In this document: positions 2,798 to 41,759 of the stretch, one piece after another
Numbering within the stretch: the first letter of the stretch is position 1
How the letters are laid out: the number at the start of each line of letters is the position of its first letter
Origin: Alphaproteobacteria bacterium
Lineage (GTDB): Bacteria; Pseudomonadota; Alphaproteobacteria; GCA-2731375
Reading direction: 5' to 3'
Assembly (NCBI GenBank): GCA_965225945.1
Contig: CBDDBZ010000009.1
Span: forward strand, 1-41,854
Length of the DNA: 41,854 nucleotides
Notes under the pieces: generated by a model
Databases searched by the model: none
Told to the model about the DNA's origin: nothing
Seen by the model: the letters and a program-made list of their open reading frames with translations, nothing else
Program-made: the position numbers and the translations under genes

Positions 2798-4393
2798 TCA
2801 GGTCCAGATCAGGTTCCGGTAGGGGACGGGGCCGCCCGCCCGAATGTCGTCGAACAGACCCACTTCCCAATCGAGATAGGCGAGCACGTTTCGGCGAACG
2901 TCGCCCGGCCGTTCGGAACTGGCGAGCCAATGGTCCACGCGGGGGGAGAGCAGGTGCACCTCGCCGCCCTCGAGTTCGAGCCCGGCCCGCGTCCACGCGG
3001 CGATGCCACCATCGAGCACCAGAACCTCGCCGGCGCCGGAACCGACCTCCCTCGCCGCCAGCGCCGCCGTCGTTCCATCTTCCGAGGTCAGGACCAGCGG
3101 TCCCTCGCCACCGAGCTCTCCCAGCCTTCGCGTCAACTCGGTGCGCGAGCACCAAGCCGCAGCCCCGACATGGCCCGCGACATAGGCATCGGAATGGCCG
3201 ACATCGACGACGCGCACCGCTCCGGTCCGCTGGGCGAGCTCGCGGGGAGCGATCCGGCGCGATGCCGCCACCTCGATTGCAGGCACGGGCGGCGTCCCCT
3301 TCGCCAGATCGGCGCCGGCAAGGCCGTCGGCGAGGACGAAGATCTCCCCCCACCCCATCATGGTGAGCCAGAGCGCGGTCACCGTGGCGCGGACCGAATC
3401 GTCGTCGACCAGCACGAAGCGGGCGCCAAGGGTGGCGAAATAGCGCTCGGGGCTCATCACCAGCGTGCCCTCCGGCGCGTTGACGGCGCCGGCCAAATGA
3501 CCCGCCTCGAATTTGCGCGGCGTACGCACGTCGAAGAGGTAGGTCGTGCGTGCGCCCTCCGACGCCCAAGCGGCGAGCCTCGCCAGATCGATCGACGGGA
3601 TTTCACCCAGCGCGGCCACCCGGGCGGCGCGTGTCCTCGCCACCTCCACCGCGCCGGGCGTGAGGAAATCGGTGAAGCGGCTCGCGCCGACCTCCAGCTC
3701 CCCGCCGTCGAGCAGCCAGCCTCGGGTACCGTGGTGCAGCACGCGGATCTCGTTCGGCACGCCCGCCGCGAGCAAGGAGAGGCCCCCCAGGATTCCGCGC
3801 GTGCCGCTCATGCAGTTGACGACGACCTTGCTCGCCGGATCGGGCACCAGGTCCTCGAACCCGCGCAGCAGGTCGGCGCCCGGCGCGTTGATGGCGCCGG
3901 GGATGGCGCCGAGCCGGTATTCCCGGCGCGGGCGACTGTCGAGGACGATGCAGTCCTCGCCCCTCTCGAGCCCCCCCCCCTCGAGCCACTGGGCCAGCTC
4001 GCGCGATTCGATGAAGTTCGGCCGGCCATACGCCCTCGCGAAGGCGCCGAAGCCCTTGGCCGGCACCTCGATCTCCTGAAACAGCGCCAGACCCGCCGCC
4101 GCCCAGGCGCGGGCGCCGCCGTCCAGCACGCCGACGTCGGCGTAGCCGAGTTCAGCCAACCGATTCGCCGCGAGATCCGCTTCCCCGCCACCGCCGTCCA
4201 GCAGGACGATGCGGGTCGCGAGTCGGGGCACCGCGCAGGGAATCGAGAGTTCCAGGCGCGAGAGCGGCAGGTTCGCCGCCAGCAGCGGGTGGGCAGTGCC
4301 GAATTCGGTGATCTCGCGGACGTCGATGAAGGCGATCTCGCGCCCATCGGCCAGCATACGGGCGACCTCGGGCGCGGAGACGGGGCGTGGCAT
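2798..4393 (-). CDS. Multi-domain rhodanese-like sulfurtransferase
   Basis: Four rhodanese repeats (IDVRE...HPLLA; LDSRP...VNCMSGTRG; FDVRTP...GHLAGA; VDVG...GHV) with LDGG..AW endings; GGGAGG RBS before ATG 4393. Confidence 0.9.
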   Translation of the reverse strand: MPRPVSAPEVARMLADGREIAFIDVREITEFGTAHPLLAANLPLSRLELSIPCAVPRLATRIVLLDGGGGEADLAANRLAELGYADVGVLDGGARAWAAAGLALFQEIEVPAKGFGAFARAYGRPNFIESRELAQWLEGGGLERGEDCIVLDSRPRREYRLGAIPGAINAPGADLLRGFEDLVPDPASKVVVNCMSGTRGILGGLSLLAAGVPNEIRVLHHGTRGWLLDGGELEVGASRFTDFLTPGAVEVARTRAARVAALGEIPSIDLARLAAWASEGARTTYLFDVRTPRKFEAGHLAGAVNAPEGTLVMSPERYFATLGARFVLVDDDSVRATVTALWLTMMGWGEIFVLADGLAGADLAKGTPPVPAIEVAASRRIAPRELAQRTGAVRVVDVGHSDAYVAGHVGAAAWCSRTELTRRLGELGGEGPLVLTSEDGTTAALAAREVGSGAGEVLVLDGGIAAWTRAGLELEGGEVHLLSPRVDHWLASSERPGDVRRNVLAYLDWEVGLFDDIRAGGPVPYRNLIWT

Positions 4394-30030: not shown

Positions 30031-30133
30031 GCCGAGGCATGGCCGCCGCCGACGCGATCACCTGCAATGTCGTCTATCGGGGGTATAGTCCCCGTCTGGC
30101 CGGGGTGGTCGATTCGGTCATTGATAGCCATAG

Positions 30134-32073
30134 ATCGGGATAGGGGGGCGCCTCGCGGCGCCGCCCCTCCCACACCACCTGGCATACGGGTCACGTACCT
30201 CGGCGGTTCGACCGGGTTAAGCATGGGCAGAGACATGGAGTCTGGGGAGACCGAATGAGTCGAAAGCGTGGTTTCGCAGGGCCATTTGGACCGCCGGGTG
30301 TCCGGACATGCGCCAGAACCCGGTCGGTGAACCGGCTGCGACCGCTGCATTGAACTTTGGGACGCCACGACGGCGCAGTTCCTTGAAGCGGTTTTGCCCG
30401 TTCCGCCATTGCCGCCAAAGATACATTCGTAGTCTTCGGCGGATCCAGGCTTCCAGATGGGTGAGCACGCGGGGGGTCTGGCAGAAACCGAAATAGCCGC
30501 GCCAACCGATCAGGTATGGTGCCAGTTCTTCGATCACCTGCTCGAGGCTGAGCCCCCGTGTCCGGTGGGTGAGGTCCCGGATCCGCGTCTTGAACTTCTT
30601 GAGCGCTTGTGGCGCGATGCGCCGCTCGCTCCCATCGTTCGAGATGCTGAAGCCCAGGAACTTGCGCGCCTCCGGTCGCGCCACCGCACTCTTGGCCTCG
30701 TTGACCTTCAGCCGCAGCTTCTTGGTCAGGAACCGGCTCACCGAGGCCATGACCCGCTGGCCGGCGCGGTGACTGCGAACATAGATGTTGCAGTCATCGG
30801 CATAACGGCAGAAGCGGTGGCCGCGGCGTTCCAGCTCCTTGTCGAGGTCGTCGAGCACGAGATTGCTGAGGAGGGGCGAAAGCGGACCGCCTTGCGGGGT
30901 CCCCTCGTCCACTGGGCTGACCAAGCCGTTTTCCATCACCCCGGCCTTCAAGAAGGCCCGGATAAGCTTGAGCACCCGCTTATCGGACAGCCGCGCGGCG
31001 ACCCGCGCCATCAAGCTGTCGTGGTTCACCCGGTCGAAAAATTTTTCGAGATCGAGATCGACCACGATGCCATAGCCCTCGGCGACATGACGTTGCGCTT
31101 GGGCGACGGCCTGATGGGCGGAGCGCCCCGGACGGAAGCCGTAGCTGTGCTCGGAAAACGTCGAATCCCAACGCGGTTGAAGGACCTGCAACAGGGCTTG
31201 CTGGATCAGTCTGTCGACGACGCAAGGCACGCCGAGCTTTCTGACCCCGCCGTCCGGCTTGGGTATTTCGACCCGTTTGACCGGCTGCGGCTGGTAACTT
31301 CCTTCGAGCAGTTGAGACCGGATGCTTGGCCAGTGTTCACGCAGGTGGTCCCTGGCGTCGTTGATGGTCATACCATCGACGCCGGGACCACCCTTGTTCC
31401 TGCGAACCTGTTTCCAGGCCCTTTCGAGGTTCTCTCGCTCGCACACCACCTCCATCAGTTGCTCTGCCGTGGCCGGGTTTTCGGGCTCTGGCGCCGCCAT
31501 GGGTGGTTCGGCCCCGTGGTGACCGCCGACCGGGGCTTCACCCCGGTCCCTCGGCTCCAGGGCCAGTGAGTACTGGACGTTCCGCCGCTCTCCACTCATG
31601 AGTTGCCAGTCCTACTTGCCTCTCCCGATCGTTCGGGCCTTCGACCATCGTTGCCGGCTCGGCCTATCCGTTGCTCCGCCTTTCGGCCTGGAGTGCCTCA
31701 ATAGCCTTGCCGACGCCATGACCTACTATGCCCTCTGCTGACTCCTGCGCCGCGATCAGGTTGCCTTACGGCTTCCTCAGTTCCGAGATCGGAACACGAC
31801 GCAGGCCTCCCCAGGTAAGTTCGGTCGCCTTCCCCGCAGCCCTGCCGGATCTACAGCCTCGGCCCTTGATGGATATGGACTTCGCGGTTCGTCGCCCGCT
31901 CGTCCGGCCAGGGATGCCTCGTATCCGGTTTCTGTTCGTCAGGTCGCGGTTTTGCTCCACACTGCCTTCGGAAGCCACCTCGCGATGACCCCCTTGTGCT
32001 TCGCTAATCCTTCACCTCCATCAGGTTGGATGGGAGACTTTCACTCCTAAGCTACCGAACATGCTGGGCACAC
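30134..32073 (-). mobile_element. Group II intron, class C (IIC), 1940 nt
   Basis: 5' GTGTG at 32073; domain V gaaccgccg...gacccgtatgccaggtggtgtg and domain VI ending cctatcccgAT at 30134; RT ORF with no endonuclease domain; located just 3' of the stem-loop accgct-gaa-agcggt. Confidence 0.92.
30217..31599 (-). CDS. ltrA: Group II intron reverse transcriptase/maturase
   Basis: NKG.PGVDG, IPKPDGG.R.LG.P...DR.IQQA, DLEKFFD, GTPQGGPLSPLLSN, RYADD, FLGF, GW.GYF X-domain. Confidence 0.95.
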   Translation of the reverse strand: MSGERRNVQYSLALEPRDRGEAPVGGHHGAEPPMAAPEPENPATAEQLMEVVCERENLERAWKQVRRNKGGPGVDGMTINDARDHLREHWPSIRSQLLEGSYQPQPVKRVEIPKPDGGVRKLGVPCVVDRLIQQALLQVLQPRWDSTFSEHSYGFRPGRSAHQAVAQAQRHVAEGYGIVVDLDLEKFFDRVNHDSLMARVAARLSDKRVLKLIRAFLKAGVMENGLVSPVDEGTPQGGPLSPLLSNLVLDDLDKELERRGHRFCRYADDCNIYVRSHRAGQRVMASVSRFLTKKLRLKVNEAKSAVARPEARKFLGFSISNDGSERRIAPQALKKFKTRIRDLTHRTRGLSLEQVIEELAPYLIGWRGYFGFCQTPRVLTHLEAWIRRRLRMYLWRQWRNGQNRFKELRRRGVPKFNAAVAAGSPTGFWRMSGHPAVQMALRNHAFDSFGLPRLHVSAHA

Positions 32074-32194
32074 AACGAAACCGCTTTCAGCGGTAGTTCG
32101 TGGTGCCGGGCGGTGAGGTCGGTGGCGTAACGGATGGGTCGATCCTGTGTTGAGGTTTGGAGTTCCGAACCTCACGCAACACGGGAGCAGACCC

Positions 32195-33100
32195 ATGACC
32201 GATAGTGACAAGACCATCAGCCCGCTGCGCCAGCGCATGATCGACGACATGGTGCTTCGCGGCTTCAGTGCCAACACGCAGCGCGGCTACATCAGTGCGG
32301 TGGCCGGCTTTTCCGACTTTCTCGCACGCTCTCCGGATCGGGCGGAGGCGGAGGATCTCAGGCGCTATCAAGTGCATATGCGCAAAGCAGGCGCATCGGC
32401 GATGACGATGAACGCGGCGGTCTCGGCATTGCGGTTCTTCTTCGGCGTCACGCTCGGCCGAGGCGACGCCGAGATCGGCATGACGACGGTGGCAATGCCG
32501 CGCAAGCTGCCGGTGATCCTGAGCGTCGAGGAAATGGCGCGGCTTCTCGATGCCGCCCCCGGTCCCAAATACAAGGCGGCCTTTTCGCTGGCCTATGGCG
32601 CCGGCCTGCGCGCTTCGGAGGTGGTCCATCTCAAGGTCCCGGACATCGACAGCAACCGCAAGACGCTTCGCATCGAGCAAGGTAAGGGCCGCCGAGATCG
32701 CTACGCCATGCTCTCGGATCGCGCCGTCGAGCAGCTCAGGGTCTGGTGGTTGCTTGGCCGCGCCCGCGGCGTGATGCTGCCCGGCGGTTGGCTGTTTCCA
32801 GGCCAGAACCCGGTCAACCCGTTGACCACCCGCCAGCTCCGTCGCGCCCTCGATGGCGCCAAGGCGGGGGCGGGGATCGAGAAGCGGATCTCGCTTCACA
32901 CGCTGCGCCACTGCTTCGCCACCCATCTCCTCGAACAGGGCGTCGACATCCGCGTGATCCAGGTTCTACTGGGGCACAAGAAGCTGGAGACCACGGCTCA
33001 CTACACCCAGGTCGCCAGCACCACCTTGCGGCGCGCCAAGAGCCCACTGGACCTGCTCGAGCCGCCGACGCCCAAGACCAAGCGCAAGCCGCCGAAGTGA
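32195..33100 (+). CDS. Tyrosine recombinase/integrase (IntI/XerD-like)
   Basis: SAM-like N-terminal domain, YGAGLRASE, GKG.RDR, HTLRHCFATHLLE.G.DIR.IQ.LLGH..LETT..Y. All catalytic R-K-H-R-H-Y residues are present. Confidence 0.95.
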   Translation: MTDSDKTISPLRQRMIDDMVLRGFSANTQRGYISAVAGFSDFLARSPDRAEAEDLRRYQVHMRKAGASAMTMNAAVSALRFFFGVTLGRGDAEIGMTTVAMPRKLPVILSVEEMARLLDAAPGPKYKAAFSLAYGAGLRASEVVHLKVPDIDSNRKTLRIEQGKGRRDRYAMLSDRAVEQLRVWWLLGRARGVMLPGGWLFPGQNPVNPLTTRQLRRALDGAKAGAGIEKRISLHTLRHCFATHLLEQGVDIRVIQVLLGHKKLETTAHYTQVASTTLRRAKSPLDLLEPPTPKTKRKPPK

Positions 33101-33113
33101 GCCGGCGGCCTCG

Positions 33114-34328
33114 GTGCCGCGTCCCGCGCTCGAGGTCCAGGACATCTTCCGCGACCACGGGCCCGGCTTCCGTCGGGCCCGGGCCGGTCGTCTGAGCCTC
33201 GGCCAACTGAAGGTCATGTCGGCGATCGAGTGTTGCCGCACCGCCGCGCTCGGCGGTCATGTCGCGGCCTGCGAGGACTGCGGGCAGAACCACATCGCCT
33301 ACAATTCCTGTCGCAACCGCCATTGTCCCAAATGCCAAGGCCAGGTCGCGCGCGAATGGCTGGCGGCGCGAGAGGCCGAACTGCTCTCCGTCCCCTACTA
33401 CCATCTCGTCTTCACCCTGCCAGCGGCGATCGCCGACATCGCCTATCAGAACAAGTCGGTGATCTACGATATCCTGTTCAAGGCGAGCGCCGAGACCATG
33501 CTCACCATCGCCGCCGATCCCAAGCATCTCGGCGCCAAGATCGGCATCACCGCCGTGCTCCACACCTGGGGCTCGGCCATGACCCACCATCCCCACATCC
33601 ACATGATCGTGCCGGGTGGCGGAATCTCACCTGACGGTAGCAGTTGGATCTCTTGCCGGCCCGGCTTCTTCCTGCCCGTCCGCGTGCTCTCGCGCCTCTT
33701 CCGCCGCCTCTTCATCGAGAAGCTCCTCGCCGCCCACGAGGCAGGGCGCCTGAAGTTCTTCACCGACCACACCAGCCTCGCCGAGCCGGCGGCCTTCCGT
33801 GTCTTCCTCGCACCGATGCGCAAACAAGAATGGGTCGTCTACGCCAAGCCGCCCTTCGGCGGACCAGAGGCCGTGCTCGCCTATCTCTCCCGCTACACCC
33901 ACCGTGTCGCCATCTCGAACAGCCGCCTGGTCAGCTGCGACAGCCAAGGCGTCATCTTCAAGTACAAGGACTACCGGCGCAAAGGACGCGAGCGCTACAA
34001 GACCTTGCCCCTGGCCGTGCCCGAGTTCATCCGCCGCTTCCTCCTCCATGTCCTGCCCTCGGGCTTTCACCGCATCCGCCATTACGGCCTCTTCGCCAAC
34101 GGCGGTCGCACCCGCAACATCTCCCTTGCCCGCGAACTGCTTGCCATGCCGGCACCGGAGAGTGAGGCCGACGATGCCGCGAGTGACGATGATACCGAAC
34201 CGCCGTCCCTCTCAGAGCCCTGCCCGCAGTGCGGCGGCCGTATGATCGTCATCGAGCGCTTCGAGGCCGGCGCCCAACCACGCGCCCCGCCCCGTGCACG
34301 GCCCCTGGCCAGGGCCACGGCAGCATGA
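33114..34328 (+). CDS. IS91-family rolling-circle (HUH, Y2) transposase with Zn-binding domain
   Basis: CRTAALGGH...C..C, YNSCRNRHCPKCQ, H.VFTLP, LHTWG, HPHIH (HUH), YLSRY (Y2), FHRIRHYGL. Confidence 0.95.
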   Translation: MPRPALEVQDIFRDHGPGFRRARAGRLSLGQLKVMSAIECCRTAALGGHVAACEDCGQNHIAYNSCRNRHCPKCQGQVAREWLAAREAELLSVPYYHLVFTLPAAIADIAYQNKSVIYDILFKASAETMLTIAADPKHLGAKIGITAVLHTWGSAMTHHPHIHMIVPGGGISPDGSSWISCRPGFFLPVRVLSRLFRRLFIEKLLAAHEAGRLKFFTDHTSLAEPAAFRVFLAPMRKQEWVVYAKPPFGGPEAVLAYLSRYTHRVAISNSRLVSCDSQGVIFKYKDYRRKGRERYKTLPLAVPEFIRRFLLHVLPSGFHRIRHYGLFANGGRTRNISLARELLAMPAPESEADDAASDDDTEPPSLSEPCPQCGGRMIVIERFEAGAQPRAPPRARPLARATAA

Positions 34329-34600
34329 CCGACACCGCTTCGAATAACGCTATTGCCGCCGCTCACCCGCGGCCACGATCCCGCTCGCCGCAACACCATC
34401 GAGCGCGCAGGGAACCACCTGCGAGACCCGCCGGCATCGACCCGAAGTCGCCATCAAACCACCCTGCCGGTGTCGTCGCCAATCAGATCCGAGCCATCCA
34501 GCAGCGCCGGCCACCCGAGAAAGCTGGCCCGCCGCTCGCAAATCCCCATAGACCGAGCGTGCCGCACCGCCGAGCCTAGTCCTGCCCGCGGTTTCCTCCC

Positions 34601-34679
34601 TTAAGCGTTGTCCGACACCTGCCGATCCAGTCCGCCGGATGCAACCCCTGCGCCTCGGCAGGTGTCCGACAACGCTTAA
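34601..34679. repeat. Terminal long hairpin of the recombinase-IS91 element
   Basis: ttaagcgttgtccgacacctgccga (34601-34625) pairs with tcggcaggtgtccgacaacgcttaa (34655-34679): 25 bp with one central C:C mismatch and a 29-nt loop. Confidence 0.9.
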
Positions 34680-34683
34680 CACA

Positions 34684-34722
34684 ATCTGTTTGTATCATCT
34701 GTTTGTATCATCTGTTTGTATC
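34684..34722. repeat. Perfect 13-bp tandem repeat x3 (atctgtttgtatc)
   Basis: Three exact adjacent copies beginning 4 nt after the element's inferred right end. Confidence 0.95.
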
Positions 34723-39965: not shown

Positions 39966-40123
39966 ATTCTACGGCTGCGGCTTCATGCGTTTCAGGGCAA
40001 CGAACGAAACCGCTTTCAGCGGTAGTTCGTGGTGCCGGGCGGTGAGGTCGGTGGCGTAACGGATGGGTCGATCCTGTGTTGAGGTTTGGAGTTCCGAAGC
40101 TCACGCAACACGGGAGCAGACCC

Positions 40124-41029
40124 ATGACCGATAGTGACAAGACCATCAGCCCGCTGCGCCAGCGCATGATCGACGACATGGTGCTTCGCGGCTTCAGTGC
40201 CAACACGCAGCGCGGCTACATCAGTGCGGTGGCCGGCTTTTCCGACTTTCTCGCACGCTCTCCGGATCGGGCGGAGGCGGAGGATCTCAGGCGCTATCAA
40301 GTGCATATGCGCAAAGCAGGCGCATCGGCGACGACGATGAACGCGGCGGTCTCGGCATTGCGGTTCTTCTTCGGCGTCACGCTCGGCCGAGGCGACGCCG
40401 AGATCGGCATGACGACGGTGGCAATGCCGCGCAAGCTGCCGGTGATCCTGAGCGTCGAGGAAATGGCGCGGCTTCTCGATGCCGCCCCCGGTCCCAAATA
40501 CAAGGCGGCCTTTTCGCTGGCCTATGGCGCCGGCCTGCGCGCTTCGGAGGTGGTCCATCTCAAGGTCCCGGACATCGACAGCAACCGCAAGACGCTTCGC
40601 ATCGAGCAAGGTAAGGGCCGCCGAGATCGCTACGCCATGCTCTCGGATCGCGCCGTCGAGCAGCTCAGGGTCTGGTGGTTGCTTGGCCGCGCCCGCGGCG
40701 TGATGCTGCCCGGCGGTTGGCTGTTTCCAGGCCAGAACCCGGTCAACCCGTTGACCACCCGCCAGCTCCGTCGCGCCCTCGATGGCGCCAAGGCGGGGGC
40801 GGGGATCGAGAAGCGGATCTCGCTTCACACGCTGCGCCACTGCTTCGCCACCCATCTCCTCGAACAGGGCGTCGACATCCGCGTGATCCAGGTTCTACTG
40901 GGGCACAAGAAGCTGGAGACCACGGCTCACTACACCCAGGTCGCCAGCACCACCTTGCGGCGCGCCAAGAGCCCACTGGACCTGCTCGAGCCGCCGACGC
41001 CCAAGACCAAGGGCAAGCCGCCGAAGTGA
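40124..41029 (+). CDS. Tyrosine recombinase/integrase, copy 2
   Basis: Same protein as 32195-33100 except M>T (ASAM/TTMN) and R>G (KTKR/GKPPK). Confidence 0.95.
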   Translation: MTDSDKTISPLRQRMIDDMVLRGFSANTQRGYISAVAGFSDFLARSPDRAEAEDLRRYQVHMRKAGASATTMNAAVSALRFFFGVTLGRGDAEIGMTTVAMPRKLPVILSVEEMARLLDAAPGPKYKAAFSLAYGAGLRASEVVHLKVPDIDSNRKTLRIEQGKGRRDRYAMLSDRAVEQLRVWWLLGRARGVMLPGGWLFPGQNPVNPLTTRQLRRALDGAKAGAGIEKRISLHTLRHCFATHLLEQGVDIRVIQVLLGHKKLETTAHYTQVASTTLRRAKSPLDLLEPPTPKTKGKPPK

Positions 41030-41042
41030 GCCGGCGGCCTCG

Positions 41043-41759
41043 GTGCCGCGTCCCGCGCTCGAGGTCCAGGACATCTTCCGCGACCACGGGCCCGGCTTCC
41101 GTCGGGCCCGGGCCGGTCGTCTGAGCCTCGGCCAACTGAAGGTCATGTCGGCGATCGAGTGTTGCCGCACCGCCGCGCTCGGCGGTCATGTCGCGGCCTG
41201 CGAGGACTGCGGGCAGAACCACATCGCCTACAATTCCTGTCGCAACCGCCATTGTCCCAAATGCCAAGGCCAGGTCGCGCGCGAATGGCTGGCGGCGCGA
41301 GAGGCCGAACTGCTCTCCGTCCCCTACTACCATCTCGTCTTCACCCTGCCAGCGGCGATCGCCGACATCGCCTATCAGAACAAGTCGGTGATCTACGATA
41401 TCCTGTTCAAGGCGAGCGCCGAGACCATGCTCACCATCGCCGCCGATCCCAAGCATCTCGGCGCCAAGATCGGCATCACCGCCGTGCTCCACACCTGGGG
41501 CTCGGCCATGACCCACCATCCCCACATCCACATGATCGTGCCGGGTGGCGGAATCTCACCTGACGGTAGCAGTTGGATCTCTTGCCGGCCCGGCTTCTTC
41601 CTGCCCGTCCGCGTGCTCTCGCGCCTCTTCCGCCGCCTCTTCATCGAGAAGCTCCTCGCCGCCCACGAGGCAGGGCGCCTGAAGTTCTTCACCGACCACA
41701 CCAGCCTCGCCGAGCCGGCGGCCTTCCGTGTCTTCCTCGCACCGATGCGCAAACAAGAA
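41043..41759 (+). pseudogene. IS91-family transposase, copy 2, interrupted before the Y2 motif
   Basis: Matches copy 1 up to APMRKQE, then reads into foreign sequence (stop at 41795). Confidence 0.9.

Follow-up and report, generated by a model that had tools for sequence, protein, structure and literature searches.

The 41,854-nt contig CBDDBZ010000009.1, analysed here over its whole length and called the window below, is one of the 39 contigs of a 6.27-Mb alphaproteobacterial draft genome and carries a 2608-bp insertion sequence (IS) at 32074-34681. This element has two co-oriented genes, for a tyrosine recombinase and then an IS91-family HUH/Y2 transposase, and is an active, many-copy member of the recombinase-bearing IS91 subgroup (ISMno24 type). 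The gene pair itself is of an already known kind; what is new here are the element ends, the empty sites, the covariation and strand bias of the folded ends, and a dinucleotide rule connecting ends and target. We consider it probable (about 65%) that the element moves by an IS91-style, HUH-driven single-strand pathway on the minus strand, with an obligatory recombinase whose step we leave unassigned. A preliminary description, made from the letters of the window alone, had suggested that a single-stranded circle is integrated or resolved by the recombinase at an AAC triplet, an interpretation that is partly supported overall.

Copies and insertion sites

The recombinase (301 amino acids, Xer/IntI-like; 32195-33100, plus strand) matches Pfam Phage_integrase (1e-40) and an N-terminal SAM-like domain. 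Its gene lies 13 nt upstream of that of the transposase (404 amino acids; 33114-34328, plus strand), which matches Pfam Y2_Tnp (5.5e-68) and Zn_Tnp_IS91 (4e-32) and scores 427.6 bits against the NCBIfam IS91 transposase model NF033538 (cut-off 125). A second copy on the plus strand, preceded by CA-AC-G, is represented by its first 1757 bp (40003-41759), with only three single-nucleotide polymorphisms (SNPs) relative to copy 1 before an IS1595-family element takes over from 41760 to the contig end. These data bear out the twice-occurring two-gene unit with a 13-nt gap that the preliminary description had recognised, as well as its assignment of the unit to the IS91-type HUH/Y2 elements and its recognition of an intact recombinase akin to IntI and Xer.

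A genome-wide census detected 22 left ends and 22 right ends. Five full copies have a length of exactly 2608 bp; a further two are also uninterrupted, of which one contains an insertion of 17 nt and the other is damaged at its tip. Copies diverge by at most a few SNPs, and the sequence they share runs from 32074 to 34681. The left terminus AACGAAACC is preceded by G in all left ends except those of two copies invaded by a group II intron (see below), one of which is copy 1, whose G is at 30133. We also found 368-nt right-end fragments directly behind full copies at three loci, a contig from public runs that joins 34681 + AT + 33406 (an alternative left end), and tandem copies at the related loci L102 and L061. 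A contig from an RNA library among the public runs covers the element, which does not establish transcription.

Comparison with empty sites shows that the mobile unit comprises the core, the G and two variable nucleotides to its left, which in copy 1 were shifted by the intron to 30131-30133. For a copy on contig C24, two paralogous empty sites elsewhere in the genome read ...TTTCAGCCA|GAACCGG, and the filled site reads ...GCCA-TAG-[AACGAAACC...GCTTAACA]-GAACCGG. Four more copies could be compared with five unfilled sites of one repeat family, which have the form TCA + 11 nt + TTAGC; three of the filled sites have the form TCA + NNG + element + 11 nt + T(T/C)AGC, and the fourth (C26b) has 9 nt rather than 11. 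Insertion follows CA with zero target duplication, and the inserted DNA bears two extra variable nucleotides left of the constant G-AACGAAACC. The terminal dinucleotide of the element (34680-34681, plus strand) is CA as well; the single CA of the empty site is ambiguous between element and target. The original left junction of copy 1 (30129-30133, plus strand) has the same structure, with target CA at 30129-30130, variable TA at 30131-30132 and G at 30133. The empty site predicted earlier, gccatagAACacaatctg, was wrong, the actual sites being ...GCCA|GAACC. No additional empty sites were obtained from relatives of the genome, which are too distant.

Across 76 flanks, the plus strand 5´ of the cut resembles AYGNCCG-N4-GGGYCA. 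The element's own right end is among the preferred target-like sites, which would explain the tandem copies and the right-end fragments. We tested whether the target is a hairpin foot, and rejected this, as the longest perfect stem at the cut averages 4.29 at 17 sites versus 4.24 at 3000 random CA sites. As a separate observation, a repeated unit of ~190 nt (30065-30130 in the window; e.g. G000 C24:61776-61923), with a promoter-like start, several hairpins and the end ...GATAGCCAA, is partially matched about 49 times across the genome, and both of its borders are preferred by the IS. No Rfam match was found in these target repeats, nor in the 1.7-kb insert of the relative IS-B described below.

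The variable pair was tallied over the left flanks, counting duplicated flanks once and including the original junction of copy 1. Most frequent were AA (six), TA (about six) and AC (five), with one case each of AT, TG, CA and a single A. The pair is not a target duplication, given that both bases equal the right flank in just one of 12 sites (on our reading), nor a lineage marker, as it varies inside the SNP groups 2530A/G and del-1006. Single-strand exchange at the boundary of the outer stem of the joined-end fold (see below) predicts that the left pair equals that of the target, and was rejected because the C24 site has TA versus GA. Derivation from the right flank of the donor is weakened by the absence of AA, found in six copies, from all 22 right flanks; in the wider family, the distributions of the variable pair and of the right-flank dinucleotide look alike.

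Folded ends and a dinucleotide rule

The right end contains a subterminal hairpin (34601-34679) with 25-nt arms (34601-34625 and 34655-34679), a 29-nt loop and one mismatch, C·C on the plus strand and G·G on the minus strand. Its predicted fold energy is -28.6 kcal/mol (z -8.0) on the plus strand and -32.5 kcal/mol (z -8.7) on the minus strand, and none of 200 shuffles matched its folding. The preliminary description had recognised the arms and the mismatch but had ended the element at 34680, one nucleotide before the shared sequence stops. For relatives we scanned one genome per species with the recombinase, which gave 80 loci in several phyla. In 42 of the 48 scorable loci, a hairpin of 16-25 bp lies 305-365 nt past the transposase gene. 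RNAalifold analysis of 31 right ends gave -31.8 kcal/mol for the minus strand, with compensatory double changes in 10 of 18 predicted pairs, and -22.9 kcal/mol for the plus strand, with such changes in 11 of 16, so the stem covariation that had been proposed as a check was found. We compared 33 distinct hairpins. In plus-strand reading, 31 of their mismatches are C·A or A·C and one is G·T; the 31 are G·T wobbles on the minus strand. Also retained are two fixed C·C positions, which are G·G on the minus strand.

The left-end repeat AACGAAACCGC (32074-32085, plus strand; GGACTAAACCGC in most relatives), whose minus-strand reading ends GTTC/GTCC, is complementary to a box, GCGGTTTCCTCC (34588-34599, plus strand), located 1-10 nt upstream of the right hairpin. 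No terminal inverted repeats were found at the element ends, as described earlier, and no inverted pairs of at least 40 nt anywhere in the window; the match of left end and box is a subterminal inverted one. For 16 distinct pairs of left end and box, 154 of 192 cells are Watson-Crick; shuffling partners among loci gave a mean of 140.4 (sd 2.9) and reached 154 in none of 2000 trials. Compensatory classes occur in three columns (AAATCGC/GCGATTT, AACCCGC/GCGGGTT and GAA/TTC), and the mismatches include nine minus-strand wobbles and no plus-strand wobble. The compensatory classes and the wobbles fall at different positions and in different clades. Overlapping the left-end repeat is the small hairpin ACCGCT-TTC-AGCGGT (32080-32094; DNA fold z -3.5), which had been noted before and whose motif is present in 51 of the 55 loci examined; it likely is the terminus signal on the minus strand.

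The dinucleotide immediately 5´ of the hairpin foot, here termed the spacer, complements both the terminal dinucleotide and that of the target. Spacer TG occurs with terminal CA, CG with CG, AC with GT, and GG with CC. Over 24 lineages, the spacer pairs with the terminal dinucleotide in 19 and with the target in 21, and the terminal dinucleotide equals that of the target in 19. Two of the misses are parsing problems: the right-end tail of L044 was mis-parsed, and in L056 the stem extends into the spacer.

Given the complementarity of left end and box, the dinucleotide rule and the right hairpin, the joined ends of a circle or tandem can fold as stem-loop-stem. The possible fold consists of an outer stem (left end and box), an internal loop with the variable pair, a 2-bp helix of terminal and spacer dinucleotides, a 3-nt bulge, the long inner stem and a variable loop. 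This is an attC-like topology (stem, internal loop, stem) and supports the earlier interpretation. These comparisons support the view that the element's ends function as folded single strands. Exchange takes place behind the terminal dinucleotide and not at AAC as had been proposed. In 31 aligned right ends, the tails comprise TAACA (11), TCACA (8) and TAACG (8) besides four others. Nineteen have the AAC triplet, and the strict GTTRRRY that had been noted on the other strand occurs solely in the window's own copy.

The group II intron at the left end of copy 1 (30134-32073, minus strand) has a reverse transcriptase/maturase open reading frame (ORF) at 30217-31599 and Rfam D1-D4 matches. It sits exactly between the G and AACGAAACC, and its 5´ exon consists of the terminator-like left hairpin and TTTCGTT. 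A copy on contig C38, which differs in variable pair and target, carries the same intron at that position, and a partial intron copy on C39 is followed by a third junction of that kind. Relatives in two further phyla (L043 and L059) also have intron 5´ ends directly at this spot.

The transposase gene is also a target of other insertions. The 8-bp site AACAAGAA (33823-33830) is split in 10 copies, including copy 2 at 41752-41759, by two kinds of ~1.03-kb IS, one of them of the IS1595 family (Pfam). These insertions occur in both orientations and are 93-100% alike, pointing to repeated independent hits on one hot spot.

Coupling of recombinase and transposase

The 80 loci span Alpha- and Gammaproteobacteria, Nitrospira, Gemmatimonadota, Acidobacteriota and Chloroflexota. 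An IS91 transposase gene lies next to that of the recombinase in all 76 loci with more than 141 nt of downstream sequence; the other four end too early. In 34 of the 35 complete pairs the two genes are 0-13 nt apart; the 35th was a mis-called ORF and was left out of the alignments. All of 35 relatives retain recombinase residues R139, K164, H235, R238, H261 and Y270, and likewise the HHPHxH motif, Y257/Y261 and the zinc cysteines of the transposase. Pairwise recombinase distances correlate with those of the transposases (r = 0.71; reached in 0 of 2000 permutations of a Mantel test). Together, the invariant residues, the gene coupling and the correlated distances argue that both enzymes are selected for catalysis and travel together. 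Judged from these sequences, the recombinase is an obligatory, catalytically intact and co-evolving partner.

These observations bear on the possibility that the recombinase alone moves the element as a double-stranded circle, comparable to Tn554 and the integrases of conjugative transposons, with the variable nucleotides as coupling sequences from the previous site. Extra variable nucleotides at one junction only, and the 2-nt identity between element and target, would fit such a route. We regard it as very improbable, given that AA, found six times at left junctions, is at none of the 22 right flanks, that the strand-biased wobbles argue for single strands, and that the catalytic motifs of the transposase are invariant.

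The same gene pair is found in existing annotations, as the preliminary description had stated. On Methylobacterium nodulans pMNOD01 an "IS91-like element ISMno24 family transposase" lies beside a "tyrosine-type recombinase/integrase", and Acidiphilium cryptum pACRY02 has the same annotated pair. The transposase gene is 73-77% identical at the DNA level to alphaproteobacterial plasmid copies. Further recombinase-bearing IS91 elements have the ISfinder names ISAzo26, ISMno23, ISWz1 and ISShvi3. Relative to ISMno24-type elements, which have the same two-gene layout, the element shows no difference in kind and is a new, very active member.

One relative, IS-B (recombinase 63% identical), has at least 22 copies in one complete metagenome-assembled genome. 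Its left junction reads ...CGACGT + NN + GGACTAAACCGC and its right end ...CCCTTCAGT; target and right end have GT in common instead of CA, and two variable nucleotides are present here too, in seven kinds. IS-B ends in TCAGT, without AAC. No unfilled IS-B target was found among the loci examined. In L102, an IS-B head-to-tail tandem has the joint CAGT + AG + GGACT. A separate feature of IS-B is an IS110-family element (Pfam Transposase_20 and DEDD_Tnp_IS110; L087:2172-3889, also in L077, L089 and L097) inside the left end between GGACT and CTAAACC, in at least eight copies, reflecting either repeated site-specific hits or a composite moving as a unit.

Xer-type enzymes resolve plasmids and chromosomes, and the recombinase might likewise be a resolvase that recombines the joined-end sites of tandems or cointegrates to single copies, or frees a circle from a tandem. 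The recurrence of tandem and partial tandem copies and the conserved catalytic residues are in line with this role. We nevertheless think it unlikely: tandems persist beside intact recombinase genes, as in L102, and no site with two symmetric arms was found.

The genome of the window also has a second recombinase-plus-IS91 family (C26:9518-11622, C35:322781-324885, C38:246323-248427 and C38:270445-275101). Its recombinase is 50% identical to that of the element, and its transposase 85% identical at the N-terminus and 71% over the remainder, which suggests that this family may be a mosaic. Immediately right of copy 1, the 13-nt unit ctgtttgtatcat is repeated three times (34683-34722), with a similar run beside the copy at C26:84154. 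Around the intron and copy 1 there are direct repeats 62-214 nt long with 80-91% similarity (27389-27617/29642-30009 and 29432-29645/34775-34988), hinting that this region may have been assembled from duplicated segments.

Strand polarity and the step of the recombinase

IS91 has the gene order terIS, orf121, tnpA, oriIS, uses tetranucleotide targets, and has a bottom-strand single-stranded circle as its functional intermediate; Orf121 sharpens the cut at the terminus (accessible text of PMC13181058). The element resembles IS91, IS801 and IS1294 in its transposase family (NF033538, Y2_Tnp and the zinc domain), in lacking terminal inverted repeats and target duplications, in having subterminal palindromes at both ends and an accessory gene between one end and tnpA, and in combining a constant right end with a variable left end. 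The minus strand of the left core ends GTTC/GTCC, and these are terminus or target tetranucleotides of IS801, IS1294 and IS1294b (PMC13181058, accessible text). The element differs in having a tyrosine recombinase in place of Orf121 or of nothing, a far longer right hairpin (20-25 bp), two variable nucleotides at the left junction, and a target with just one fixed dinucleotide and a preferred 17-nt motif. In the would-be tetranucleotide, positions 1 and 2 vary, and target and right end have the dinucleotide in common in 19 of 24 lineages. Recombinase-bearing relatives are not mentioned in the accessible text of PMC13181058.

The constant right end, the alternative left ends, the gene order and the minus-strand bias fit the IS91 arrangement of an origin on the right and a terminus on the left; a functional bottom-strand circle and the succession of terminus, accessory gene, tnpA and origin agree with the IS91 reports (PMC13181058, in its accessible part). 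We infer a pathway with the following strand polarity and division of labour. The HUH/Y2 transposase would nick the minus strand beside the long right-end hairpin, the origin; this strand would be peeled off by replication and released at the left terminus, where the small hairpin is followed by GTTC/GTCC. In the product, a single-stranded circle, the left end would pair with the box beside the right hairpin, and the long stem-internal loop-stem fold would present the cut site. The circle would then insert, without target duplication, after the target dinucleotide (CA here), which equals the element's terminal dinucleotide and complements the guide-like dinucleotide at the hairpin foot. Sites resembling AYGNCCG-N4-GGGYCA would be preferred, the element's own right end included. 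The recombinase most probably acts on the same folded or joined-end site.

A guide-like dinucleotide has a counterpart in IS608, in which, as Barabas et al. reportedly described in 2008, hairpin-foot sequence is complementary to the bases of the cleavage site and the same bases define the target. The element shares with IS608 a short hairpin-foot sequence complementary to cleavage-site bases that also set the target. IS608 belongs to another family (IS200/IS605), with a Y1 rather than a Y2 HUH enzyme, and just 2 nt covary here. The guide-like geometry matches that of the IS608 right end on the plus strand; the wobble bias, in contrast, speaks for the minus strand.

Several observations weigh against a minus-strand pathway of the IS91 kind. 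On the plus strand, conserved target bases (RGYCA|) precede the cut on its 5´ side, with no constraint on the right flank; by the logic of IS608-type HUH enzymes the plus strand would then be the one cut, in conflict with the wobbles. Because the sequences compared are related and hence not independent, wobbles and covariations are counted more often than the underlying events occurred. No conservative HUH reaction explains the variable pair at the left junction, and the 17-nt target motif exceeds the tetranucleotide targets of classical IS91. Finally, neither a circle nor a junction read was found in the public runs, all 24 of which are kept as assembled contigs.

Folded strands are recombined by tyrosine recombinases in other systems, in that integron integrases act on attC and XerCD on CTX phage DNA. 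The HUH transposase might therefore merely make the circle, leaving the IntI-like recombinase to recombine the folded joined ends with a double-stranded target, with resolution by replication. In such a two-enzyme pathway, a minus-strand circle with attC-like joined ends would be directed to look-alike chromosomal sites by the element's own recombinase, and the variable dinucleotide would be the footprint. We regard this as a tentative possibility, considerably less probable than integration by the IS91-style pathway. A classification preprint places recombinases of IS91 and IS3 elements in an integron-like subgroup (10.1101/542381, accessible part), and the best Protein Data Bank (PDB) matches of the recombinase are XerC-like, IntI4 and XerA. 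The invariant catalytic residues would also fit. The joined ends resemble attC in their single-stranded outer stem, internal loop, inner stem, conserved mismatches and variable loop, with one strand favoured, and, as in a linear integron cassette, the left-end portion of the site finds its pairing partner in a box that borders the right-end structure on its inner side. The ~17-nt target motif is of att-like length. Left ends have taken up a group II intron and an IS110-family element, and attC sites are reported as targets of both (PMC9229058, accessible part). A variable dinucleotide is not known for recombinase-free IS91, which has a single terIS cut site (according to the accessible text of PMC13181058).

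The likeness to integrons is incomplete. In alignment with IntI4 (2a3v) the recombinase match splits in two, with residues 179-215 opposite 175-247 of the chain, indicating that the IntI-specific insert is absent, and the preprint describes the IS91/IS3 recombinases of the subgroup as being without the extra helices of IntI (10.1101/542381, accessible part); the resemblance to integron integrases put forward in the preliminary description does not hold in this respect. The score against the integron integrase model TIGR02249 is 174 bits (cut-off 265), and all NCBIfam matches of the recombinase are under cut-off. Neither AAC nor GTTRRRY/RYYYAAC is conserved, and the exchange point is in the loop, 5 nt into a 7-nt spacer rather than at an arm boundary, whereas integrons exchange at G|TT of the core site. 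The arms are without dyad symmetry (by eye). A one-point exchange would likewise inherit the variable dinucleotide, and classical IS91 integrates its circle by the transposase alone (PMC13181058, accessible text). In place of an integron's attI, promoter and cassette array, the recombinase gene here has a transposase gene beside it in every locus (no array search was made).

Recombinase-plus-IS91 pairs are widespread, and in Bacteroidota such pairs adjoin tet(X) resistance clusters (PMC11194056 and PMC11322121, accessible parts). A literature search confined to openly readable main texts returned no functional work on recombinases of this kind. The anatomy described here offers leads in the form of exact ends and empty sites, a conserved, strand-biased joined-end fold, a guide-like dinucleotide that predicts the target, and the variable dinucleotide. 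It also suggests that rolling-circle transposons may be connected with the folded-DNA recombination seen in integrons; if the two-enzyme pathway were true, the integron recombination system would have its nearest free-living relatives in these elements.

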